A program made the translations under genes and the position numbers. Positions 16,252 through 48,995 of a stretch of DNA of 64,000 nucleotides are shown here, piece by piece (position 1 is the stretch's first letter; the number at the start of each line of letters is the position of its first letter). This DNA is from Minisyncoccia bacterium (GTDB lineage: Bacteria; Patescibacteriota; Minisyncoccia; Phycocordibacterales; CALRBL01). The stretch spans positions 9,632 through 73,631 of the forward strand of contig JBBRPW010000001.1 in assembly GCA_038227435.1 (NCBI GenBank), read 5' to 3'. Under the pieces are notes generated by a model that searched no databases, was not told the origin of the DNA, and was given only the letters and a program-made list of their open reading frames with translations.

Positions 16252-16326
16252 GCACCCGTGGTGAAATGGATATCACAACAGTCTTCGGAACTGTTTTTGT
16301 AGGTTCGAGTCCTGCCGGGTGCACCA
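16252..16326 (+). tRNA. tRNA-Arg (anticodon TCG), CCA encoded.
   Basis: Manual fold: acceptor GCACCCG/CGGGTGC, D stem GTGA/TCAC, anticodon stem ACAGT/ACTGT with loop CTTCGGA, T arm GTAGG-TTCGAGT-CCTGC, 3' ACCA. Confidence 0.85.
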
Positions 16327-16341
16327 GATAGGGTAGAGTGA

Positions 16342-16412
16342 GCGGGTATGGTTTAGTGGTAGAACACGTCCTTGCCAAGGACGAGTCGAGGGTTCGATTC
16401 CCTCTACCCGCA
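16342..16412 (+). tRNA. tRNA-Gly (anticodon GCC); CCA not encoded.
   Basis: Acceptor GCGGGTA/TACCCGC, anticodon stem CGTCC/GGACG with loop TTGCCAA, T arm AGGGTTCGATTCCCT. Confidence 0.85.
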
Positions 16413-16567
16413 CTAGGAACGAGTATAAAACAAAACGAAGTTTTGTTTTATCGAGTGACGACGTACGGGGAAGACTGGCTCTCCTGAGCCAGGCTTACAA
16501 GCACTAGGAGTTTGTCAAAGACAAACTCCTCAAAATCCCCTAAACTAACGGACCAATATAAGACAAC

Positions 16568-16576
16568 TGTGGATAA
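16568..16576 (-). promoter_or_regulatory. Perfect DnaA-box 9-mer (TGTGGATAA on the + strand).
   Basis: Exact reverse complement of TTATCCACA, lying between tRNA-Gly and the yraN-like gene. Confidence 0.3.
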
Positions 16577-16747
16577 CTACGGGGATATGTGCTTAAAAGA
16601 CATTCTAAATATCCTTATTCTTAGCCAAATGACTTTTATAATCGACATTAAGGAGCACTTTATAAAACATCATTTTTACCCATATATTTATACCTTTTTT
16701 ATAATTTCTTAATTAAAATTTTACGTATAGTATTCCAAAATCGATGA

Positions 16748-17188
16748 ATGAAATTAAAAGACATTGGTAGATATGGGGAAGCTGTCGCTAAATACTATTT
16801 TAAAAATAAGGGATATACATTCCTATCCGCAAACTTTCAAATAAGTGAAGGGGAGATTGATTTAATTTTTAAAAAAGACAATGAAATCGTTGCGATTGAA
16901 GTAAAGGCCTCAGTTATTCCTGGGAATAATGTTTTTAGTTATGAATACAGCCCAATTCAGAAAATAAATAGATTAAAACTTCATAAAATCAAAATTACAT
17001 TGTGTCACTTCATTAAAAAGCATCACCAATATAGATATTTCAACAAAAGGGTAGATTTGATAGGGGTTAGAATTCTTTCACGAGTATCCTCAGAAGATTT
17101 TAAGAATTTGAAAACTATAAGTGAGGCAATTAAGTTAAATCTCTTTAAAAACATCTTTATTACGCATATTCCCAATGTAATTTGGTAA
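16748..17188 (+). CDS. yraN: YraN/UPF0102-family predicted endonuclease.
   Basis: GRYGEAVAKYYFKNKGYTFLSANFQISEGEIDLIF...IVAIEVKA matches the UPF0102 core. Confidence 0.7.
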   Translation: MKLKDIGRYGEAVAKYYFKNKGYTFLSANFQISEGEIDLIFKKDNEIVAIEVKASVIPGNNVFSYEYSPIQKINRLKLHKIKITLCHFIKKHHQYRYFNKRVDLIGVRILSRVSSEDFKNLKTISEAIKLNLFKNIFITHIPNVIW

Positions 17189-17232
17189 AAATTTCATGGC
17201 TTTTTTGAATCATTATGCTATGCTCCTTGTAC

Positions 17233-17305
17233 CGGAGTGTAGTGTAACGGCTAACATTCTTGATTTGGGATCAAGCGACTCAGGGTTCGAATCCCTGCAC
17301 TCCGA
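17233..17305 (+). tRNA. tRNA-Pro (anticodon TGG).
   Basis: Acceptor CGGAGTG/CACTCCG, anticodon stem CTTGA/TCAAG with loop TTTGGGA, T arm CAGGGTTCGAATCCCTG. Confidence 0.85.
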
Positions 17306-17336
17306 CAAGTTTAAGTACTAATAAAGATTCAAAAAT

Positions 17337-17642
17337 ATGGCTTTCATTAAAAATGTGGAAGATTTTAAGTGTGAAAAATGTGGAACCGATATAAAAGGCG
17401 ATGGTTTCACTAACCATTGTCCTAATTGTTTATATAGTAAGCACGTCGACAACGATCCGGGGGATAGGAAAAATACATGTGGTGGCTTAATGAAGCCAAT
17501 TGCCTATATTAAAATGAAAGAGAAGGAAAAAATTACTCATCAATGTTTAGTTTGCGGCGAAGAGAAAAATAATAAAGTTTGCCTAAATGATAGTAGGGAA
17601 GCAATGGTTACTATGATTAAAAATGGAATTGAAGAGAATTAA
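17337..17642 (+). CDS. Small Cys-rich zinc-ribbon protein, RNHCP-domain-like.
   Basis: CEKCG...FTNHCPNCLYSKHVD...CGG...CLVCG; the xNHCP motif resembles the RNHCP family. Confidence 0.5.
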   Translation: MAFIKNVEDFKCEKCGTDIKGDGFTNHCPNCLYSKHVDNDPGDRKNTCGGLMKPIAYIKMKEKEKITHQCLVCGEEKNNKVCLNDSREAMVTMIKNGIEEN

Positions 17643-17709
17643 TTCCAAATAAAGCTCTGGATTGAAATATCTCTAGTATTTGCTACTATCTTCATACAAA
17701 CAAATAAAT

Positions 17710-17780
17710 GCGGGATTGGTTTAGTGGTAGAATGACTGCCTTCCAAGCAGTAGACAAGGGTTCGATTCCCTTATCCCGCA
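17710..17780 (+). tRNA. tRNA-Gly (anticodon TCC).
   Basis: Acceptor GCGGGAT/ATCCCGC, anticodon stem ACTGC/GCAGT with loop CTTCCAA, T arm AGGGTTCGATTCCCT. Confidence 0.85.
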
Positions 17781-17904
17781 CAAGACATGAACAGTTTGAG
17801 ACGGCTCGCTGTCTCAAACTAGTGAATGGCGCAGTGCGGGGCAATGTCCGCACTAGGAGTGAAACTCCTTCTCCTTCTTTCCATATTTTTTAATTTATTA
17901 AATA

Positions 17905-39649: not shown

Positions 39650-40873
39650 ATGCCCGTTTCAATTAATGAAGCAATAGAGAAGAAATATATTACGATTGGA
39701 ACATACGTGTTGGTACGTGTTGATTTTAACGTATCGATGGATGGAAATACGGTTCGTGATGATTACCGAATTGCGCGGGCACTTCCCACTATTTTAGCCC
39801 TCACGAGTGCTGGCGCAAAAGTAATTTTAATAAGTCATATTGAATTAAGCGAATCTAAAAAACATGGATTAACTGCGGGGAAAAACGATGCCGATAAAAG
39901 TGCGGTGCCAAGCCTACAACCCGTATACGATTATATTAAAACAACATATCCAAAAGAGTTTAATCGATGTTATTTTGTACCTGATTTATTAAGTGAACAA
40001 GGTAAAAAACAAGTGTCACTGTTAAAAGAAGGCGAAATTATTTTAGCCGAAAATATTCGAATGTATGAAGGAGAAAAAAAGAACGACACTGATTTTGCAG
40101 CTGCGCTCGCTAGTTTAGCTACAGTATATGTGAATGATGCCTTCGCTGTGTCTCATCGAGCGCACGCTTCAGTGGTTGGAGTGCCAGCGCTTAAAGCATC
40201 AAATGAACGCTTTGCTGGTCTTTTACTTCAATCTGAAATTGAAGCACTTGACCCTTCAATTCAAAAACCTCGTCCATTTATATTTATCTTAGGAGGAGCG
40301 AAGTTTGAAACAAAACTCCCACTCATTACAAAATATTTAGATGTGGCCGACCATGTTTTTGTGGGAGGAGCACTTGCCAACGACTTATTTAAACTACAAG
40401 GAAATAACGTAGGAAATTCATTAGTATCAACAGATAAAAATATTGAAGAAAGCCTTCGTGAAATTTTAAAAAATAAAAAATTAATTATTCCTGAAGATGT
40501 TTTTGTACTATGCGGACAACATATCGAAATTAAACATCCGGAAGATGTTAAAGATGGTGAAAATATTTTAGATATTGGCCCCGAAAGTTTAGTGAAGTTC
40601 GAATCTTTATGTGAGAATGCTGGATACATTGTATGGAATGGCCCACTTGGTGATTACGAACGCGGTTTTGAATTTGGAACATTAATGCTTGCAAAAATTT
40701 TAGCAAATCTTAATCACAACAAAACACGGACAGTGGTTGGAGGAGGCGACACATTAGCGGCCATCAAAAAAGCCAACGTTTTCGATAAATTCGGCTTCGT
40801 TTCAACAGGAGGAGGAGCAATGCTCGAATACTTAGAGAAGGGAACCCTCGTGGGAGTTGAGGTGTTGAAATAG
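39650..40873 (+). CDS. pgk: Phosphoglycerate kinase.
   Basis: N- and C-terminal PGK motifs (ILISH..., GGGDTLAAI..., STGGGAMLEYLEG). Confidence 0.9.
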   Translation: MPVSINEAIEKKYITIGTYVLVRVDFNVSMDGNTVRDDYRIARALPTILALTSAGAKVILISHIELSESKKHGLTAGKNDADKSAVPSLQPVYDYIKTTYPKEFNRCYFVPDLLSEQGKKQVSLLKEGEIILAENIRMYEGEKKNDTDFAAALASLATVYVNDAFAVSHRAHASVVGVPALKASNERFAGLLLQSEIEALDPSIQKPRPFIFILGGAKFETKLPLITKYLDVADHVFVGGALANDLFKLQGNNVGNSLVSTDKNIEESLREILKNKKLIIPEDVFVLCGQHIEIKHPEDVKDGENILDIGPESLVKFESLCENAGYIVWNGPLGDYERGFEFGTLMLAKILANLNHNKTRTVVGGGDTLAAIKKANVFDKFGFVSTGGGAMLEYLEKGTLVGVEVLK

Positions 40874-40926
40874 GTGATTTAAAATCTATTTTTCTTTTTT
40901 GGGTAGGTGTGTAGTATTATTGATAT

Positions 40927-41676
40927 ATGTTTGAAAAATATCTTCAAGAATTAGGATTATCCGATAAGGAGGCAAGTGTATATATTTCACTTCTCCAGGT
41001 AGATAACGACTCAGTACTCGATTTGTCTAAAAAAACAAAAATTAATAGAACCACTATCTACCCAGTCCTTGAAAGCTTGGCCAAAAAAGGTCTTATTAGC
41101 GAAGCACAAGTTGATAAAAAGATTAGATATCACGCCGAACCACCCGAACGATTAGAAACATATGTTGAGCGGCAAAAAACAATGCTTCAAGAGCATTCAA
41201 ATCGATTAAAAGATGTAATTCCTCAGTTAAAAAGTATTCAGAGGGAAACTGGGGAAAAACCAATGGTTAAGTATTTTGAAGGTAGACAGGGTGCGATCAG
41301 TTCTCTTGAAGAGTTTTATAATTCAATCGGAAAAGGTGGCACTGCATATTTAATTTATCCAAAAGATGCAATAAAAAATATCTTCAATGAAAAAGAAATT
41401 GAAAAATATCGATCAATACGCCTTAAAAGGGAAATAAAGACAAAAGTAATAAGTACTTCGTCAAAAAACGACATAATTTCTGATTCAACAGGTAATCGAA
41501 TACAAATTGACGGAGAAAAGTATCCCATCACTTCGGATATTGCTATTTACGAAGATAAAGTAAGGGTTACTATTTTGGGGAAGTCTTTAGCAGCATTTTC
41601 AATAAAGAGTCAGGATCTTGCTGATACACTTCGTAGTTTATTTGATTTGGTATTTGATCTATCAAAAAATAAATAA
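40927..41676 (+). CDS. TrmB-family HTH transcriptional regulator.
   Basis: N-terminal LGLSDKEASVYISLL...INRTTIYPVLESLAKKGLI winged-helix region typical of TrmB. Confidence 0.6.
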   Translation: MFEKYLQELGLSDKEASVYISLLQVDNDSVLDLSKKTKINRTTIYPVLESLAKKGLISEAQVDKKIRYHAEPPERLETYVERQKTMLQEHSNRLKDVIPQLKSIQRETGEKPMVKYFEGRQGAISSLEEFYNSIGKGGTAYLIYPKDAIKNIFNEKEIEKYRSIRLKREIKTKVISTSSKNDIISDSTGNRIQIDGEKYPITSDIAIYEDKVRVTILGKSLAAFSIKSQDLADTLRSLFDLVFDLSKNK

Positions 41677-41696
41677 GAGACTTATATAATAAAAGA

Positions 41697-41738
41697 TACC
41701 CCGATCGCACAACGTGCTGCGATCGGGGTATTTGGTTT
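41697..41738 (+). terminator. Rho-independent terminator ACCCCGATCGCAcaacgtgcTGCGATCGGGGT + TTTGGTTT.
   Basis: 12-bp perfect GC-rich stem followed by a T-rich tail. Confidence 0.6.
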
Positions 41739-42326
41739 AGACCCCGTGGTCTTTTACTCCGAGAACGATAAGGTATTGCCCTTCGCGTTCTCGAACGATT
41801 TCATTGGCCTACCCCTCGGGGTAGAAAATAAGGTGTGTTTACTAGTCAGACATACTATTTTTCCTTCGGTCGGGGTTCTCTCTAACAAGGTTTGGATTTT
41901 GAGGACAGCTTTTAGCTACTAGTCCCAGCCAACAGCCGATTCGGGCGCTGTTGGCTGGGACTTTCACTTTCGGCTAGTCGCCCATATTACCTCCTTGTTA
42001 AGGTTCGGGAATCGTTCATAAGCAAGAGCGCTAATGAATTTCCAAATAAAATTTAGCATAATAAAATTGGTCTGTCAACATGTTTTAACTAAATTGAGTA
42101 TATTTGATCAATTTTATATAAAATAAGGCTATGAATATAGCTTCAATAGTGTTTTTACTTGTTATTGTCGGTTTTTGTGTTTTGACACCTGAAAAATACT
42201 ACAAAACAAATATTTTTTAATGCAATTAATGTAGTTTTATGTCATATCTAATTTACATATATTGTATATAATATCCTTATTTATCAATACTATAATGGAA
42301 TATTAAATTTAATCTGTCATAAACAC

Positions 42327-42354
42327 TTGACAAAAATATAAATATCCGTATTAT
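42327..42354 (+). promoter_or_regulatory. Sigma70-like promoter TTGACA-16 nt-TATTAT driving the island's + strand transcription.
   Basis: Consensus -35 and near-consensus -10 with 16-nt spacing, about 200 nt upstream of the first island ORF. Confidence 0.4.
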
Positions 42355-42478
42355 CTTTCTCAGTTAGAACTTTTCACCTCAACCCCCAAAGAACAATGCG
42401 TTACTACGTGCTCCCCGACGGGACCGTGGTGATCAACCCCTCTGACGCCTACTAAGGCGTTACGGGATGATCCCACTT

Positions 42479-42530
42479 CTGCGGCTTAGGCACGCGGGGG
42501 AATAATGCACCCTGGCAACAGAATCGCATC
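42479..42530 (+). repeat. Repeat family R1, copy a (CTGCGGCTTAGGCACGCGGGG...CCTGGCAACAGAAT), in the 5' leader of island ORF-A.
   Basis: A 21/21 identical block plus a 14-nt block shared with copy b at 43777-43828. Confidence 0.55.
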
Positions 42531-42561
42531 CACTAAAACATCACCCTAATTTTTTACAACT

Positions 42562-42843
42562 ATGAAAAAGATCGTGATCGGAATGATGGTCGTTCTCGCT
42601 CTACTCTTGTCGTTTGTTGCAGGTGTCTTCTACGGCACCAACGCAACTATCGCCAAGATGGAATTGCTGGAAACCCCCAGAGGCCGCATTCTTTACTACT
42701 TCATTCCGAATACATCTGCTTCGACAGAAATTTATTCGCTTGATAGTGGAGAAGATGCTGATCTCTACGAGGATTCAACACAAATTCCTGACGAAGACGT
42801 GACTGAGAGGAAAGACTCTCTGAAGGACGACACTAACCTTTAA
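42562..42843 (+). CDS. Island ORF-A: small membrane-anchored protein with an acidic C-terminal tail.
   Basis: 93-aa ORF. TM helix IVIGMMVVLALLLSFVAGVFYG. The last 14 codons and the stop lie inside repeat R2a. Confidence 0.4.
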   Translation: MKKIVIGMMVVLALLLSFVAGVFYGTNATIAKMELLETPRGRILYYFIPNTSASTEIYSLDSGEDADLYEDSTQIPDEDVTERKDSLKDDTNL

Positions 42844-42897
42844 TTCAAAAGTGTTTATTTTTGCGACCGTTTTAAATGGTTGGTTGGCGTGCAGCGC
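42801..42897 (+). repeat. Repeat family R2, copy a (97 nt), immediately upstream of HHR1.
   Basis: 94 of 97 positions identical to copy b at 45769-45866. Contains hairpin GAGAG-gaaaga-CTCTC. Confidence 0.7.
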
Positions 42898-42935
42898 TAA
42901 GAGAAAACTTTAAATCCTAACTATAAAAAGTTAGA

Positions 42936-42987
42936 TCTGTCTCGAAATGTAATTTCGACTGATGAGCTCTAGAGAGCGAAACAGAAA
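42936..42987 (+). ncRNA. Hammerhead ribozyme, type III topology (HHR1).
   Basis: TCTGTC|TCGAAATgtaATTTCGA-CTGATGA-GCTCtagaGAGC-GAAA-CAGA. All core nucleotides present (C3-A9, G12-A14, A15.1-U16.1, GUC cleavage triplet). Three stems fold as required. Confidence 0.75.
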
Positions 42988-43436
42988 GTACTTTAAAACC
43001 AAGAAAAATAATAAAAGTTAAATTCGTCTGCACTTGAGAGTGTTTTTAAAAATATTCTCACGTGCAGGCGAAAGTAGCGCCAAAGCATGTGATCGGTAGT
43101 ACACATTTAAATCTTGAGTGAGTGTCTCGGATTTAAGTGGAGTTGTACTACGTATTAATTCATCACCAAAAAAATGATTAGTGGGATGTTCTGATTGTTC
43201 TCGTACGCCTCGCGAGAGACCAACAGTCAAAATGTCACATCATTTGAGTAGGGACAAGCAGTTCGTTGCTGTGCACCGAACTTTGATGAATTATGGCTGT
43301 GAACGATCTGAGGTGAGTACCGCAAGGTAACTCAGTTTGATCTAGTAATAGTTATGGGGAAAGCGCATAAGGCTTGGTCGCCAAGTGTGTATTACCTGCT
43401 ACAAAATTTCTAAACCTCAACCAAAAAAGAATTACT

Positions 43437-43772
43437 ATGGCACATTACAGTACTTTTATTTTTCAGTTGCCAGGATGTCCCGAGATTTATATGAGTACTC
43501 GGTACAACATTATTCAGGACTTTGATTGCATTCGAAATAAGTTTGGAAAGGGGTTGATTAAGTTCAAACCTTTCTACAAGCCTGATCGAGTGCAATTTAC
43601 TCCTCCGAGTAATGGAGAAAAGCATCCTTGGGTATTGCTGACTAAATATCAGCGTAGGAAGATTCAAACCTTCCTCAATGTGGTCTACCGAAAGGGAAAC
43701 CACAGGGTACCTCGGAGATGGCGCAAGTTCGTAAAGAACGACGGCGTCTTTCCAAAGGAGTGTCTCGACTGA
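43437..43772 (+). CDS. Island ORF-B: small basic protein (R/K-rich C-terminus).
   Basis: 111-aa ORF from ATGGCACATTAC; no homologue recognised. Confidence 0.35.
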   Translation: MAHYSTFIFQLPGCPEIYMSTRYNIIQDFDCIRNKFGKGLIKFKPFYKPDRVQFTPPSNGEKHPWVLLTKYQRRKIQTFLNVVYRKGNHRVPRRWRKFVKNDGVFPKECLD

Positions 43773-43776
43773 GCAA

Positions 43777-43828
43777 CTGCGGCTTAGGCACGCGGGGTAC
43801 ACATACTACCTGGCAACAGAATTGTATG
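43777..43828 (+). repeat. Repeat family R1, copy b. It follows the ORF-B stop and precedes HHR2.
   Basis: Shares CTGCGGCTTAGGCACGCGGGG and CCTGGCAACAGAAT blocks with R1a. Confidence 0.55.
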
Positions 43829-43857
43829 AAACTGACTAGTAATTATTTACTAGTCAC

Positions 43858-43909
43858 TCTGTCTCGAAATGTAATTTCGACTGATGAGCTCTAGAGAGCG
43901 AAACAGAAA
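43858..43909 (+). ncRNA. Hammerhead ribozyme, type III (HHR2), 52/52 identical to HHR1.
   Basis: Same sequence as HHR1, preceded by the 9-bp palindrome GACTAGTAA-ttat-TTACTAGTC. Confidence 0.75.
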
Positions 43910-44304
43910 TACATTAAAAATAAAATAATTTCTTTACACCTCATCCGGCGTTTATTTGCGGCACGAAAATAACCACGCAAACAAAAAATGTGGAAACCCG
44001 CTAGACGCTGGTTGAGGTGTAATGAACAAAAAATATAGGTTGCTAGTTAACCTGATCCGAGGAGCTCTGGTTTTCCATAAGGAAAACTAAAACTTTCGGG
44101 CTTTAGTGGGGCAAGCAACGTAACGCCGGATGCGTACGTGTGAGGCCAAAAGCACAAAAACTACTTGTTTGCCCAGCTATCGGGGAATAAGCGTCGTTCG
44201 TGGTACGGCGTTATGAGCATAAGTATCAAAATCTCCGAAGCCATTCGCCCTTAAGGGTGAAATGGTTCTAGTGAGGAATTTTGAGAACGTTCTCTAACAA
44301 CCAC
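43910..44304 (+). ncRNA. Roughly 395-nt ORF-free, highly structured spacer between HHR2 and HHR4. Candidate large structured RNA of unknown class.
   Basis: Long-range inverted repeats TTACACCTCA/TGAGGTGTAA and CATCCGGCGTT/AACGCCGGATG. Local hairpins GTTTTCC-ataa-GGAAAAC and CCATTCGCCC-ttaa-GGGTGAAATGG. No ORF over 40 codons on the + strand. Confidence 0.35.
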
Positions 44305-44357
44305 TTTGTTTATCGATGTGTTTCGATACTGAAGAGCTCAAAAGAGCGAAACAGAAG
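44305..44357 (+). ncRNA. Hammerhead-like ribozyme variant (HHR4): CTGAAGA core (position 7 = A), GUU cleavage triplet, short stem III.
   Basis: TTTGTT|TATCGAtgtgttTCGATA-CTGAAGA-GCTCaaaaGAGC-GAAA-CAGAAG. Position 7 is tolerant and U17 is permitted but weaker. Confidence 0.5.
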
Positions 44358-44393
44358 ATCTTTAAATTTCAGCAACTTCAACCCCCTAAAAAA

Positions 44394-44699
44394 ATGCAAA
44401 ACCCATATGGTTCGGAGAAGCAGTTGGAAACCACCGAACAGCAGATCGACCGCCGTGTCGCGCTCAGTGTCCTCGAAGTGAGCTACCATTTTTGGGGCGC
44501 ACTTCGGGGTGGTGGCGAACGGGCCGCTGCGAACCTTTTGAACAGTTTGAAAGGTGCAGCACCACGCGGCTACTACTTCACTGTCTCGGCAGATAGGGAG
44601 TGGCGTCCGCGTGCAAACAAAGACGGAACGTTCGAGTTCCGCCGCCTGTTTCAGCCCCGAACCAACACTGTCGCCATCATCGGATTGGCAAGACGATAG
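44394..44699 (+). CDS. Island ORF-C: hypothetical protein.
   Basis: 101-aa ORF starting at ATGCAAAACCCA, directly downstream of HHR4. Confidence 0.35.
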   Translation: MQNPYGSEKQLETTEQQIDRRVALSVLEVSYHFWGALRGGGERAAANLLNSLKGAAPRGYYFTVSADREWRPRANKDGTFEFRRLFQPRTNTVAIIGLARR

Positions 44700-44719
44700 T
44701 GCCGGAAGGGTTGAAACAC

Positions 44720-44830
44720 ACGTTAAGAGTCACCGTAAAAAACTCTGGTCTGATCCACTAACAACGATCACTCGTTTATCGTATGCGAGCTTCAAAAAAC
44801 GTTCGGGTCCGCCCGTGATAGCGGCGTCGG
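44720..44830 (+). repeat. Repeat family R3, copy a (about 110 nt), followed by hairpin GGGGAAtttatTTCCCC.
   Basis: About 93% identical to copy b at 46431-46540. Some differences are compatible with conserved pairing (AACGA/TCGTT versus AATGA/TTGTT). Confidence 0.65.
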
Positions 44831-44916
44831 TAGGGGAATTTATTTCCCCACTTTATTGAGCCTGTCACATTCGGTGATTGGTTCATCAAGTTCGTTCTTT
44901 TCAAAAAAATAAAAAT

Positions 44917-45330
44917 ATGAAACTTAACGTCAAGGCTATCCGTAGTTTTGTGCTTAGTCAGGTAGTGGACAAGGAAGAGTCAGAAGCACTCATCTTTTAT
45001 TTGGCTGGCATCAATGCCGAATTCTATCTCGTAGATCCTCACACCTGCGGAGAAGAAGCAGGAGAGATTGGCTTCATGGGTTTCAACTTCACCGACAAGG
45101 TGAATGATGCAATGAATGCTGGTCTTTGGGCTGTGATTTACGACGATGGGCGCGATTATGCTTACCATAAGTACTTCCTTTTCGAGGAAGACGCTAAAAG
45201 TTTTGCAAATCGGGTTGGTGGAGGCTTATTGAAGTACACCAACACTGCAAATCGGCTGAAAGTTATTGCCCACTTTAGAAAGTTGGGCTTAATCGAAGAA
45301 GTTCCTGAAGAAGAAGGAATTCTCGAATAA
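44917..45330 (+). CDS. Island ORF-D: hypothetical acidic protein.
   Basis: 137-aa ORF from ATGAAACTTAAC. Confidence 0.4.
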   Translation: MKLNVKAIRSFVLSQVVDKEESEALIFYLAGINAEFYLVDPHTCGEEAGEIGFMGFNFTDKVNDAMNAGLWAVIYDDGRDYAYHKYFLFEEDAKSFANRVGGGLLKYTNTANRLKVIAHFRKLGLIEEVPEEEGILE

Positions 45331-45463
45331 CTTTAAGTCAATTCATATACGTTCTGCATAACGTAAAAAATGTAGCTGTTTTGCTCAATATGCGTGCAAG
45401 AAATTGCATGTCGACATATTGGCTTCTTCAGTGAAAAAAGAAGGTAAGAAAGGAGGATCAACA

Positions 45464-45760
45464 ATGATCATCGACCTTTCTCTTCGTAATGAGCGCCTGT
45501 ACAAGGGTTGCGAAATTACGGAGGTGGCAGGCCGGCTGAACTTGGTTACTCCAGTTGCTGATGCAGTTAATATCGTTGGCCGCAACGCCAATGGGTTGAT
45601 TGCAGAAGTTGCTGCGAGTGATCGGAGCGAAGTCGAGCTTACGGGTCCGATGGCGGTTTGGTCTTACTTGATCGTTTTCCACGCTGTGGTTCACGCCTTT
45701 TCGAAGGTGTACTACAACGATGGGAAAGGTCGGGTACTGATCGCCGCCCACGGCGCCTGA
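45464..45760 (+). CDS. Island ORF-E: hypothetical protein preceded by a strong Shine-Dalgarno.
   Basis: AAAGGAGGatcaacaATG gives a canonical SD at optimal spacing. 98-aa ORF (MIIDLSLRNERLYKG...). Native genes in this window generally lack an SD. Confidence 0.5.
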   Translation: MIIDLSLRNERLYKGCEITEVAGRLNLVTPVADAVNIVGRNANGLIAEVAASDRSEVELTGPMAVWSYLIVFHAVVHAFSKVYYNDGKGRVLIAAHGA

Positions 45761-45768
45761 TGCCATCT

Positions 45769-45866
45769 GACTGAGAGGAAAGACTCTCTGAAGGACGACA
45801 CTAACCTTTAATTCAGAAGTGTCTATTTTTGCGACCGTTTTAAATGGTTGGTTGGCGTGCATCGCT
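45769..45866 (+). repeat. Repeat family R2, copy b, non-coding here, immediately upstream of HHR3.
   Basis: Near-identical to R2a. Confidence 0.7.
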
Positions 45867-45890
45867 GACGGATAGATGTTCTATCCGTCA

Positions 45891-45942
45891 TCTGTCACAG
45901 GGTATTACCTTGTCTGATGAGTTCAAAAGAACGAAACAGAAG
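45891..45942 (+). ncRNA. Hammerhead ribozyme, type III (HHR3), a sequence variant of HHR1/2.
   Basis: TCTGTC|ACAGGGTattACCTTGT-CTGATGA-GTTCaaaaGAAC-GAAA-CAGAAG. Full conserved core. Preceded by hairpin GACGGATAG-atgtt-CTATCCGTC. Confidence 0.7.
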
Positions 45943-45970
45943 ATCTTTCAAAACTCCACAAATAATTTTT

Positions 45971-46204
45971 ATGAATAATCATTCGAAAGAATTGGTATGT
46001 GTTCGAGTGATTAATGTATGCGCATCCATTAAAGGCTCTTTTGGATTAGGTCACTTTATAAAAGTCGATCTGTCTGGAGTCAGTGATTGGTATATATACT
46101 GCTCAAAAACTAAACCAATTGTCGGACAAGAAATTTCCATGTTTCTTACTATGTACGGCAAATGGACATGTCTCGATGACAGAGACAATGTCGAATCATT
46201 TTAG
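45971..46204 (+). CDS. Island ORF-F: small Cys-containing hypothetical protein directly downstream of HHR3.
   Basis: 77-aa ORF from ATGAATAATCAT. Confidence 0.3.
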   Translation: MNNHSKELVCVRVINVCASIKGSFGLGHFIKVDLSGVSDWYIYCSKTKPIVGQEISMFLTMYGKWTCLDDRDNVESF

Positions 46205-46430
46205 TCGAATTAAAACCCTATGATCAACATCATCAAATCTACTCGCTATAAGGTGAGTGGCTTCATTCGTAACTGCGTTAAAAACCCTCGCACGAGCTGG
46301 AAGCTGCGGAAGCAATTGGCTTCTCGCAGCATGCGTCGCCTCGATCGAAAGGTGATCGCTGCAACGGATGTTGAGGAGCATTCGTCGTGTGTCGTATACA
46401 ATAACTTCCTGGGCTATCCGTAGCAAGGAA

Positions 46431-46540
46431 ACGTTAAGAGTCAACGTAAAAAACTCTGGTCTGATCCACCAACAATGATCACTTGTTTATCGTATGCGAG
46501 CAACAAAAAACGTTCGGGTCCGCCCGTAATAGCGGCGTGG
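46431..46540 (+). repeat. Repeat family R3, copy b, ending at the island's terminal terminator.
   Basis: See R3a. Confidence 0.65.
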
Positions 46541-46542
46541 TT

Positions 46543-46570
46543 AAGAGGAACATCAGTTCCTCTTTTTTTA
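46543..46570 (+). terminator. Rho-independent terminator AAGAGGAAcatcagTTCCTCTT + T8.
   Basis: 8-bp stem followed by a T run. Confidence 0.6.
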
Positions 46571-46615
46571 TTTCTAAATCAAATTAAGTTAAAATTTATA
46601 AACCTACTTATTAAT

Positions 46616-47053
46616 TTATTTATCGAGCTCTGAAATTATTTTTTGAGCAATATCTTCTTTTTCTCCATCTTTATAAATAATATGTTCACCATATCTCATA
46701 CTCACTCCTTTATAACGAGGGATTAAATGTGCGTGTATATGTAATATTTCCTGGCCTCCATATGAGCGATTGTTAATGAGTAGATTTACTCCATCAAGTT
46801 TAAGAGCATTCTCTAAAACGTTTGCCACCCTTTTAACTCCTTTCATCATTGTTCCAAAAAGTTCTGTGTCGATCTGAAATATGTCGTCAGCATGTGTTTT
46901 TGGAATAATAATTGTATGTCCTAAGGCAAGAGGATTAATATCGAGGAATACAAAGACATCTGCGTCTTCATAAAGCTTTGTTGTGTTAACTTCTCCTGTA
47001 ATCATTTTGCAAAAGATGCAATCTTTATGGGTTAATTCGTTATTCATGGCCAT
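46616..47053 (-). CDS. HIT-family (histidine triad) nucleotide hydrolase.
   Basis: HIHAHLIP histidine triad motif. Confidence 0.85.
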   Translation of the reverse strand: MAMNNELTHKDCIFCKMITGEVNTTKLYEDADVFVFLDINPLALGHTIIIPKTHADDIFQIDTELFGTMMKGVKRVANVLENALKLDGVNLLINNRSYGGQEILHIHAHLIPRYKGVSMRYGEHIIYKDGEKEDIAQKIISELDK

Positions 47054-47093
47054 ATTTTAACACGTATACGGGCTAGCATGATACAATCTTTTC

Positions 47094-48995
47094 ATGTTTT
47101 CAGTACTACCTGGTATTCCAGAACAAGATTCTGCACGAAATGAATTAGCAAAATATAGCGATAGAATAAAACACCTGCTTTATCATAGAGGCATTAAAAC
47201 TGCCAAAGAGGCACAACATTTTTTGGACCCGGTATATGAGCATAATCATGATCCGATGTTGATGTCGGGCATGAAAAAAGCTACTGAACGTTTTTTACAC
47301 TCAATTGATACAAACGAACATATTGTAATTTATAGTGATTACGATGCTGATGGAATTCCTGGTGCAGTTGTGCTCGCCAGTTTCTTAAAGAGAATTGGTT
47401 ACACTAATTTTTCACACTATATACCTGACAGACACCTTGAAGGATTTGGTGTAAACATGGGAGCGATCGATGAAATAATTTATAGAGCAAAAATACATGA
47501 AATTCCGCATACTTTTTTATTAATTACCATCGACTGTGGAATATCAGATGTCGAACCAATTCAAAAAGCTAAAGATTTGGGAATCGATGTAATTATCACT
47601 GATCATCATATGCCTGGGAGTATTTTTCCTGCTGCATATGCCATTGTTAATCCCAAAATAAGTATTCAAGAGCAACAGGTATCTCCAAAAAAAGCAAAAA
47701 ATACAGAAGAATTAATTTATCCCTTCAATATGCTTTCAGGATCCGGTGTAATTTTTAAGTTTGTTCAAGGATTAATGTTACTCCGTGATTTTAGTGATAA
47801 AGGTTTTAAACCTGGCCATGAAAAATGGTTACTTGATATGGTGGGTATTGCAACAATGTCTGACATGGTTCCTTTAATTGGAGAAAACCGAATTTTTGCT
47901 CACTTCGGTTTGAAAGTATTGCGTAAATCTCCTCGAATTGGTTTGCAAACACTTCTTTCAAAACAGAAAATTGATCAACGCTACATTAACGAAGAAGATA
48001 TTGGATTTAGTATTTCTCCTCGTATAAATGCTGCGTCAAGAATGGGAAAAGCCGATAAAGCCCTTGAATTATTTTTGACCGATGATGAGTCGAAGGCATT
48101 AGAACTTTCAATTTATTTGCAGAAGTTAAACGATGAGCGTAAGGGATATGTTGCAGCTATTGTGAAAGATTTGAAAAAGCACCTAGAGGATGACCTTCTA
48201 GCTTCCGATAATTCAGACATTCCAAAATGTATTATTGTAAAAGGAAATCCCGATTGGAGACCATCACTTTTAGGACTAGCAGCAAATAGTTTAATTGAGC
48301 AATATAAATGCCCAGTATTTTTATGGGGGCGTGGAGAAGGAGGGACTATTATTAAGGGTTCTTGTAGAACTTATGTAACTGAAGGCATGAATGGGCATAT
48401 GAGTTTGGTTAATTTGATGCATAAAGCTGAAGAAATTTATAGCACTGAGCAGATTAAGAAAATCAAAAAAATAGATAAAGAAAAAATAGAAGAAATTAAA
48501 AAATTATTTCTTCATTGTGGAGGTCATGCAATGTCTGGGGGATTTGCTGTCGACCATGAACACATTCATCTCCTTCCTGAATATTTAGAAAAAGCAGTTA
48601 AATTTTATGCAAAAGATTTTTTAAATGAAAAAAACAATATTTCGAATGTACTCAAAGCCGATCTTGAATTAACACTCGATGAAATCGATATGCGTCTTTA
48701 TAATGAAATTTCGCAACTTGCACCATTTGGGGTAGGGAATCAAAAACCACTTTTACTCATTAGAAATGTGATTCCACAAGAAGTTCGTCAATTTGGTAAA
48801 GCTAAGGAACACTTTGAAATGAGTGCTCGAAATGGAAAAGGTCGCACGATAAAAATGCTTTGTTTTTTTGCGAAACCTGAAGATTTTCATGTTGTACCCG
48901 ATGTATTAAAACCTGTTTCAATTGTCGGGCACATTGAGCACTCTCGTTTTTTGGGAAAAAGTGAAATTAGGCTTAGATTGGTCGAAGTCTTCTAA
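47094..48995 (+). CDS. recJ: Single-stranded-DNA-specific exonuclease RecJ.
   Basis: DHH motifs (YSDYDADGI, ITDHH) and DHHA1 domain (GGGHAMSGG). Confidence 0.9.
   Translation: MFSVLPGIPEQDSARNELAKYSDRIKHLLYHRGIKTAKEAQHFLDPVYEHNHDPMLMSGMKKATERFLHSIDTNEHIVIYSDYDADGIPGAVVLASFLKRIGYTNFSHYIPDRHLEGFGVNMGAIDEIIYRAKIHEIPHTFLLITIDCGISDVEPIQKAKDLGIDVIITDHHMPGSIFPAAYAIVNPKISIQEQQVSPKKAKNTEELIYPFNMLSGSGVIFKFVQGLMLLRDFSDKGFKPGHEKWLLDMVGIATMSDMVPLIGENRIFAHFGLKVLRKSPRIGLQTLLSKQKIDQRYINEEDIGFSISPRINAASRMGKADKALELFLTDDESKALELSIYLQKLNDERKGYVAAIVKDLKKHLEDDLLASDNSDIPKCIIVKGNPDWRPSLLGLAANSLIEQYKCPVFLWGRGEGGTIIKGSCRTYVTEGMNGHMSLVNLMHKAEEIYSTEQIKKIKKIDKEKIEEIKKLFLHCGGHAMSGGFAVDHEHIHLLPEYLEKAVKFYAKDFLNEKNNISNVLKADLELTLDEIDMRLYNEISQLAPFGVGNQKPLLLIRNVIPQEVRQFGKAKEHFEMSARNGKGRTIKMLCFFAKPEDFHVVPDVLKPVSIVGHIEHSRFLGKSEIRLRLVEVF

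Follow-up and report, generated by a model that had tools for sequence, protein, structure and literature searches.

Identical type III hammerhead motifs bound a conserved RNA-plus-protein cassette in a candidate-phyla chromosomal island

Clusters of hammerhead ribozymes have been described in prophages, where individual genes or short runs of genes lie between them (Perreault et al., 2011, PLoS Comput Biol; PMC3088659). Transcripts of ~2 kb from these clusters cleave at every site in vitro, and circular or spliced products were considered and not detected (PMC3088659). Hammerheads are also found in retrozymes (Cervera and de la Pena, 2016; reviewed in PMC7761336). These eukaryotic non-coding elements, which accumulate as circular RNA, carry their hammerheads inside long terminal repeats (LTRs) of ~350 bp and also have primer-binding sites and target-site duplications. 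A literature search for reports joining the hammerhead with Patescibacteria, the candidate phyla radiation or transfer-messenger RNA (tmRNA) returned nothing relevant in the collection searched. Here we describe a hammerhead-containing island in a 64,000-nt stretch of a Minisyncoccia bacterium genome (GenBank assembly GCA_038227435.1, contig JBBRPW010000001.1, positions 9,632 to 73,631; hereafter the window), centered on two identical 52-nt hammerheads, HHR1 and HHR2. Our preferred reading, to which we assign a probability of roughly 0.7, is that HHR1 and HHR2 are functional type III self-cleaving ribozymes, two of four that would cut one operon transcript of ~4.2 kb. Genomes and contigs used for comparison are designated by L numbers.

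Four hammerheads of one subfamily

The window contains exactly two copies of the 52-nt sequence TCTGTCTCGAAATGTAATTTCGACTGATGAGCTCTAGAGAGCGAAACAGAAA, which agree at 52 of 52 positions, as a first-pass annotation made from the letters alone had stated.

42936-42987, + strand: HHR1, type III hammerhead; predicted cut 42941/42942; passes a core and helix descriptor
43858-43909, + strand: HHR2, type III hammerhead identical to HHR1; predicted cut 43863/43864

No further copy with three or fewer mismatches was found in the window, and none was expected (100 shuffles). The block of identity is exactly 52 nt long; the flanks are unrelated and diverge at once on both sides, the upstream flank of HHR2 ending …CTAGTCAC (also …TTTACTAGTCAC) and the downstream flank of HHR1 starting GTACTTTAAAACC… (also GTACTTTAAAACCAAG…). 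The cleavage triplet of both copies is GUC, with predicted cuts after C42941 and C43863, C17 being the cleavage nucleotide. Stem III is open, as first annotated, and consists of 5 bp (UCUGU/ACAGA, the U16.1-A15.1 pair counted in) rather than the 4 bp originally given. Stem I can be read as UCGAAAU/AUUUCGA with a GUA loop, the 7-bp hairpin first proposed, but a 6-bp stem with a UGUAA loop is the better reading when relatives are compared. The remaining anatomy stood as annotated: the core CUGAUGA is followed by a 4-bp stem II (GCUC/GAGC, with the G10.1-C11.1 pair and loop UAGA), GAA and A15.1.

The search with the Rfam model that had been suggested as a check was carried out on positions 40000-47000 (7 kb). 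HHR1 matched RF00008 (Hammerhead_3) with 40.3 bits (E = 3.1e-6) and HHR2 with 41.9 bits (E = 1.1e-6), each over model positions 1-54 of 54. These matches are significant, though below the curated gathering score of 48.5 bits, which is an operational cut-off and not a structural feature. Because both fall under this score, they were not listed by the default Rfam scan of the full window, which reported four tRNAs and nothing else. The low scores are mostly due to the stem II loop, which has 4 nt where the model has 8.

The first-pass annotation recognized two hammerheads; both are real matches, and the set is in fact four, the additional copies being:

44305-44357, + strand: third hammerhead in line, with a CUGAAGA core and a GUU site; predicted cut 44310/44311
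45891-45942, + strand: fourth hammerhead; predicted cut 45896/45897; Rfam match spans 45889-45942

A descriptor search of both strands of the entire window returned exactly these four, all on the + strand. The fourth copy matched RF00008 with 40.1 bits (E = 3.6e-6) and differs from HHR1/HHR2 by compensatory changes in stems I and II, with stem III unchanged. The third was found by reading the sequence and aligned with 54 of 54 RF00008 positions at only 23.8 bits (E = 0.002 in a 101-nt search). All of its core positions are permitted, N7 being variable, and the descriptor accepts it; we regard it as a probable hammerhead, mainly on account of its context and family resemblance. The core CUGAUGA plus GAA is present in HHR1, HHR2 and the fourth copy, GUC in three of the four copies (GUU in the other) and the U16.1-A15.1 pair in all, and stem III is compatible across the set.

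Hammerheads of the HHR1/HHR2 subtype also occur in several candidate-phyla genomes, and copies in related islands score above the Rfam cut-off (49.7 bits in L040, 55.2 in L248 and 48.6 in L246). When the pattern CTGANGAGNTCNANAGANCGAAACAGAA, which fixes the core, the stem II frame and the 3' strand of stem III, was applied to IMG/VR, 35 viral contigs matched. The 5' half, left unspecified by the pattern, reads (C/U)UGU(C/A) followed by a complementary 6-bp stem I with loop UGUGU, UGAGU or UGUAA in 34 of the 35; the sole exception, L018, has ambiguous bases in this half. Several phage contigs carry two or three copies, and phage hammerheads typically lie 3' of a terminator-like hairpin and 5' of a ribosome-binding site. 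Variants with an additional U between A9 and stem II were observed in L051 (7055-7113) and L250 (659-712), reading CUGAUGA-U-GACUC… and CUGAUGA-U-GAUCC….

Across 29 distinct sequences from the window, candidate phyla and phages, all 14 pairs were kept and 10 of them changed on both sides, with a covariation score of 0.71 compared with 0.22 for shuffled alignments and at most 0.15 with slid partners. Stem changes that are exclusively compensatory, with loops and core fixed across phage and candidate-phyla copies, are the signature of selection on the RNA fold. The description of HHR1 and HHR2 as canonical type III hammerheads was thus borne out by their complete core and connectivity, by the full-length match to RF00008 and by membership in a covarying subfamily. 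The hammerheads might instead be inactive relics, or serve mainly as DNA repeats at which cassettes recombine with each other, leaving RNA cleavage without a role. The sub-threshold Rfam scores, the extra-U variants of L051 and L250 and the ability of a non-ribozyme hairpin (M6, below) to take the same positions in L244 are in keeping with such a fate, which we consider highly improbable: none of the four window copies has lost a catalytic position, and the stems change only by compensation around fixed loops and core.

The bounded cassette and its tmRNA-like element

HHR1 and HHR2 delimit a conserved unit of RNA and protein, a point that the first-pass annotation had missed. The predicted HHR1-HHR2 excision product is 922 nt long and includes an open reading frame (ORF) designated ORF3:

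42988-43436, + strand: X1, a conserved structured RNA domain 5' of ORF3, including a 21-bp hairpin at 43024-43071
43437-43772, + strand: ORF3, encoding a 111-aa basic protein of a small conserved family (15 homologs)
43777-43827, + strand: D5b, second copy of the two-hairpin element D5, starting 5 nt past the ORF3 stop codon
43834-43855, + strand: perfect hairpin GACUAGUAAUUAUUUACUAGUC, read from the sequence, just 5' of the HHR2 cut site

X1 (~400 nt) could be aligned in six genomes, and its RNAalifold consensus of 68 pairs, 24 of them with compensatory changes, comprises the 21-bp hairpin and a long-range closing helix. Neither X1 nor the X2 domain described below matched an Rfam family. The X1 hairpin (CGCCUGCAC…GUGCAGGCG) was also observed 3' of another hammerhead in L248 (3803-3852), with a covarying inner stem. 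The 15 homologs of ORF3 are ~100-115 aa long and 52-70% identical, with strongly conserved N- and C-terminal blocks, and the contigs that carry them resemble the window island in having many small same-strand ORFs and long gaps. ORF3 had no match in Pfam, PHROG or among PDB folds; its AlphaFold model is of moderate confidence (pLDDT 66), and a profile search gave no convincing remote relative, with one weak match at E = 8e-5. The place of the GACUAGUAAUUAUUUACUAGUC hairpin is taken by different hairpins in L040, L048, L051 and L105.

A hammerhead-bounded cassette was found in at least five other contigs (L246, L248, L249, L250 and L252), with the ribozymes 830-925 nt apart and X1 and D5 kept. 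The ORF3 homolog of L246 lies between two hammerheads that are identical over 56 nt and 830 nt apart. The flanking hammerheads of L248 and L249 differ by one base and are ~921 nt apart (922 in the window), and those that flank the homologs in L250 and L252 are non-identical. The 922-nt unit folded at -309 kcal/mol (z = -7.4 vs shuffles), and its minimum-energy fold kept stems I and II and paired the 5' ACAGA with the 3' UCUGU. Conservation is also seen in the adjoining unit, which contains:

43910-44304, + strand: X2, an ORF-less structured RNA between HHR2 and the third hammerhead, identified by fold and conservation

No + strand ORF longer than 29 aa was found in this 447-nt fragment (43864-44310), which folds with z = -5.8 vs shuffles. 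L250 retains the 3' part of X2, which there too follows the ORF3 cassette directly and lies between two hammerheads.

The element D5 also occurs at a second site, upstream of HHR1:

42479-42529, + strand: D5a, first copy of the two-hairpin 3' element, with loop CCUGGCAACAGAA, found as a direct repeat

D5 consists of two hairpins, the second enclosing the loop (N)CCUGGCAACAGAA. By direct-repeat analysis D5a and D5b are 82% identical, with a compensatory change in the second stem, and D5b is 92-94% identical to the copies in L040 and L048. A D5 pattern run against one genome per species gave 14 matches, ten of which are the 3' end of alphaproteobacterial two-piece tmRNA genes; all five of these ten loci that were scanned with Rfam matched RF01849 at its last positions. 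Three other matches are in the candidate-phyla genomes L040, L048 and L051, where D5 lies 3' of a small ORF. As with D5b and HHR2, a type III hammerhead follows D5 by 30-60 nt in L040, in L051 and after one of the two copies in L048. Candidate-phyla copies lie 0-25 nt from a stop codon, and in L040 the UAG in the first D5 loop is itself the stop codon. A relaxed pattern matched at least 120 places in metagenomes, with extensive stem covariation, and the examples include verified permuted tmRNAs in which the hairpin directly follows the tag stop codon (…ALAA*). The hairpin (CGGGGU, variable stem, loop NCCUGGCAACAGAA) was also present in at least one standard one-piece tmRNA (L080). The window D5b itself aligned weakly with the 3' end of RF01849 (E = 0.4), so the link between D5 and tmRNA rests on the database scans instead.

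Neither ARAGORN nor Rfam detected a tmRNA in the window, nor was a tRNA-like domain (acceptor stem, T arm and CCA end) found there. A two-piece tmRNA gene processed by hammerheads was considered and rejected, because the tRNA-like domain is missing, islands hold several copies of D5 apiece, and in relatives D5 follows ordinary ORFs of 68-129 aa. In viral contigs the strict D5 motif was not found, and nearly all relaxed matches are accompanied by tag-coding sequence; the most plausible reading of these is that attachment sites hold fragments of tmRNA. D5 as the remnant of a phage attachment site would suit most of the viral matches, not the internal repeated copies of D5 that adjoin ribozymes. 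D5 may serve as a 3'-terminal element of RNAs that obtain their 3' ends through processing, as the coding piece of two-piece tmRNA does.

A D5-like hairpin (1364-1393) was also observed 12 nt upstream of a pistol ribozyme (1406-1476) in L079, a metagenome contig of 2497 nt (Ga0105099_10038067) that contains three pistol ribozymes and two type II hammerheads. Its two ends (1-75 and 2375-2449) hold one and the same type II hammerhead, so that the contig possibly represents a tandem or circular unit of ~2.37 kb. The occurrence of the hairpin before a pistol ribozyme in this unrelated contig suggests a general pairing of the 3'-end element with self-cleaving ribozymes.

The D5 loop bears on a further alternative, in which the hammerheads are conditional switches held back by competing pairings, and cleavage regulates the genes up- or downstream instead of processing the transcript constitutively. 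The loop holds AACAGAAU, identical in sequence to the 3' strand of stem III, and could compete for the UCUGU strand 30 nt downstream; in isolation, moreover, HHR1 and the third hammerhead have minimum-energy folds without stem III, and regulated cleavage has been proposed for phage hammerheads (PMC3088659). We consider this explanation very unlikely, since the same D5 loop is conserved in tmRNAs without a hammerhead, so that decoy pairing does not explain it, most natural hammerheads have a short stem III whose formation is aided by tertiary contacts, and no ligand-binding domain is evident.

All four hammerheads lie in a promoter-to-terminator unit of ~4.2 kb on a single strand, with the following limits:

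42327-42354, + strand: predicted sigma-70 promoter (TTGACA, 16 nt, TATTAT), 11 of 12 consensus positions, the best site in 41500-47200
46431-46564, + strand: D2b repeat and intrinsic terminator closing the island (terminator at 46543-46564, T run after)

The predicted promoter sits in a stretch of 21-28% GC. According to our preferred reading, constitutive self-cleavage, each hammerhead would cut after its GUC or GUU during transcription, and the operon transcript would yield five RNAs of ~580, 922, 447, 1586 and ~675 nt. HHR1 and HHR2 would release the 922-nt RNA, the 5' part of which would be the folded hammerhead body with a 5'-OH end, followed in order by X1, the ORF3 gene, D5 just past the stop codon and a further hairpin; its 3' end would be ...UCUGUC with a 2',3'-cyclic phosphate. 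The purpose might be to provide separate RNAs with structure-buried ends, each with a stability and translation of its own. Cleavage at these sites, like the parts that D5, X1 and the ORF3 protein may play in the released RNA, is what we infer from the anatomy and conservation described above.

Several observations weigh against this reading. All four window copies are under the RF00008 gathering threshold, the third with just 23.8 bits, and the percentage of paired positions is inflated because a pairing descriptor contributed to the selection of the covariation set. The island promoter and terminator are consensus matches only. In L244 the same cassette is present and no hammerhead could be detected, so the cassette can exist without the ribozyme. 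Finally, any benefit of processing stays conjectural because the ORF3 protein has no assigned function.

The island, its neighbors and related islands

The hammerheads are located in an ORF-poor stretch of ~45-58% GC, the remainder of the window having ~35%. The island is flanked by housekeeping genes: upstream are those for pilin-like proteins, triosephosphate isomerase, phosphoglycerate kinase and a TrmB-family regulator, and downstream are those for HIT, RecJ, RNase H, ComEC, superoxide dismutase and ribosomal proteins. Within ~8 kb upstream or ~11 kb downstream of the island, neither an integrase nor a phage gene was found. The host chromosome is of a candidate-phyla, Patescibacteria type, and the syntenic relatives are metagenome-assembled genomes labelled Paceibacteria or Saccharibacteria. 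Features of the island and its border outside the cassette are:

40927-41676, + strand: TrmB-family transcription regulator directly upstream of the island (Pfam PF01978, E = 4e-16)
42562-42843, + strand: ORF2, 93 aa, hydrophobic N-terminus, from the ORF list; no significant Pfam or PHROG match
42800-42898, + strand: D4a, 99-nt structured repeat before HHR1, 97% identical to D4b
44394-44699, + strand: ORF4, 101 aa, orphan; self-hit only among 5.8 billion proteins
44720-44849, + strand: D2a structured repeat (44720-44832) with terminator-like hairpin (44833-44849)
44850-44896, + strand: M6, long bulged hairpin with conserved arms ACUUUAUUGAG ... UUCAUNNAGUUC, recurring in relatives
44917-45330, + strand: ORF5, 137 aa, orphan; self-hit only, no homolog in 5.8 billion proteins
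45464-45760, + strand: ORF6, 98 aa, orphan, from the ORF list
45768-45866, + strand: D4b repeat before the fourth hammerhead, found by direct-repeat analysis
45971-46204, + strand: ORF7, small, no family, from the ORF list
46220-46423, + strand: ORF8, small, no family, from the ORF list

None of the seven island ORFs tested had a significant match in Pfam or PHROG, and permissive Rfam scans of 40000-47000, 43730-43860 and 44700-44920 returned no twister, pistol, hatchet or hairpin ribozyme, group II intron or tmRNA. The last of these scans likewise assigned no Rfam family to D2a or M6. D2a is 92% identical to D2b (46431-46543). A diverged D4 with compensatory stem changes precedes a hammerhead in L040 (4950-5063), and the D4 motif was not found in viral contigs. 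The outer arms of M6 are conserved in sequence (ACUUUAUUGAG … UUCAUAGAGUUC) and its inner stem is variable and covarying; a GUUCUUUAAA-like box follows M6, as it does the hammerheads. M6 recurs in L040 (5260-5304), L062, L077, L143 and L253, and four times in L244 (1463, 2378, 4218 and 5553), where it occupies the hammerhead positions of other genomes. M6 might serve as a site for RNase III-type processing, or it might be a hammerhead that has degenerated, or a new ribozyme.

Some observations concern neighboring sequences. A leader, ACYUCAACC(C/A)nAAAGAA, occurs just 5' of start codons at 42376-42393, 43414-43431 and 44375-44392, ahead of a possible 19-aa ORF, ORF3 and ORF4, respectively; it resembles the 16S anti-Shine-Dalgarno sequence (CACCUC) and not a Shine-Dalgarno site. 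A possible independent small RNA (41696-42078, minus strand, ~350 nt, 48% GC) diverges from the island, with a promoter-like site at 42078-42050 (10 of 12 positions, with TG), a strong 14-bp terminator at 41731-41696 and no Rfam match. A tRNA cluster at 16252-17781 (Arg-TCG, Gly-GCC, Pro-TGG, Gly-TCC) is syntenic with L048 and L051; the ribozyme island lies a few kb from it in those genomes and 25 kb away in the window.

The window TrmB protein is 65% identical over its full length to that of L246, which has the same position and orientation upstream of the L246 island, and TrmB paralogs adjoin the islands of L040, L048 and L051. RNA modules of the window are 80-95% identical to those of L040, L048 and L051, and shared host genes are ~67-81% identical. 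Most island ORFs are not shared; a few small-protein families recur in shuffled order, and the neighbors of the cassette differ from genome to genome. The L051 island lies between an HU gene and a downstream gene. The window orthologs of these two genes (77% and 67% identical) are separated by only ~170 nt, too close to hold an island, and none is there; islands therefore occupy different sites in related genomes. A twister-P1-like element in L248 (1088-1147; 53.8 bits, E = 1e-9, below the 67.2-bit gathering score) was seen beside four type III hammerheads, so candidate-phyla islands mix ribozyme classes.

These comparisons bear on a reading in which the 922-nt RNA is ligated into a circle, by hammerhead self-ligation or an RtcB-type ligase, or the unit is a mobile cassette, a circular DNA or RNA intermediate with one hammerhead re-entering genomes by recombination at a resident hammerhead. 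Such a history would explain the identity of the two bounding copies. After cleavage the 5' and 3' ends of the unit would pair as stem III and lie adjacent, a pairing kept in the minimum-energy fold, and all four hammerheads have a compatible stem III. Identity between flanking copies stops at the hammerhead borders (52 nt in the window, 56 nt in L246, one mismatch in L248), and the hammerheads differ between genomes although flanking pairs match. The varying cassette neighbors, the small-ORF families shuffled between islands and the differing chromosomal sites point the same way, and circular products were raised as a possibility by Perreault et al. (PMC3088659), who nevertheless sought circular or spliced products of the prophage clusters and found none. 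We nonetheless consider ligation or mobility unlikely. Neither the island nor its vicinity holds a gene for reverse transcriptase, integrase or replication, and no target-site duplication or LTR-like repeat is seen beyond the ribozyme; the flanking hammerheads of L252 differ and L244 has none; and gene conversion can also make short functional repeats 0.9 kb apart identical. Logan contigs with the cassette break off where elements are repeated (L253 has a 15-nt terminal repeat), as they would at ordinary repeats, and so are not evidence for circles. The fuller proposal, that ~0.9-kb hammerhead-delimited cassettes of candidate phyla are cut out, circularized and moved between islands by recombination at the hammerhead, seems to us quite doubtful; if true, bacteria would have in the circularized cassettes a protein-coding equivalent of retrozymes or viroid-like RNAs, and the identical repeats of exactly ribozyme size in three genomes would be accounted for.

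Comparison with known systems

The first-pass annotation considered a cluster of this kind unusual. As such it is not, since multiple gene-flanking hammerheads were described and shown to cleave in 2011 (PMC3088659). The locus bears on the question of what bacterial hammerheads are for, in that its ribozymes bracket a conserved unit and not arbitrary phage genes. This unit is found again in several candidate-phyla genomes, in some cases between identical ribozymes, and so offers a defined, testable substrate. It poses the questions of whether the 922-nt RNA is discrete or circular, whether the protein binds it, and whether the tmRNA-like hairpin protects a ribozyme-made 3' end.

Like the prophage clusters (PMC3088659), the window cluster has its hammerheads in one orientation with a canonical core and brackets single or short blocks of mostly hypothetical genes: its four + strand copies enclose zero to three ORFs each. 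The role proposed for both is the same, the cutting of a long transcript into gene-length RNAs. Unlike the prophage clusters, the island has no integrase or phage context, belongs to a candidate-phyla host and adjoins a TrmB regulator; one of its units is a conserved cassette of structured RNA and protein, one is ORF-less, and tmRNA-like hairpins stand at unit ends. Its hammerheads resemble members of RF00008, which come from viroids, satellites, plants and bacteria, in their full-length alignment, identical core, open stem III and G10.1-C11.1 and A15.1-U16.1 pairs, and differ from the model in their stem II loop (4 nt vs 8) and in a stem I that is a 6-bp hairpin with a UGUAA or UGUGU loop.

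As in retrozymes, a unit several hundred nucleotides long lies between two type III hammerheads in direct orientation, and the ends of the excised RNA would be ligatable to a circle. In contrast to retrozymes, the repeat in the window is the 52-nt ribozyme only, the unit carries a conserved gene, ORF3, and there is no sign of a reverse transcriptase partner. D5 shares with the 3' region of permuted tmRNA (RF01849; PMC11915505) the CGGGGU sequence, a variable stem, the loop (N)CCUGGCAACAGAA and a position after a stop codon, whereas the window has no tRNA-like domain, resume codon or tag frame and D5 lies between a small ORF and a ribozyme. Taken as a whole, the hammerhead cluster is of a known kind, to which this locus adds a bounded conserved cassette, an ORF-less bounded RNA, a tmRNA-like 3' element and a non-phage, TrmB-linked setting.

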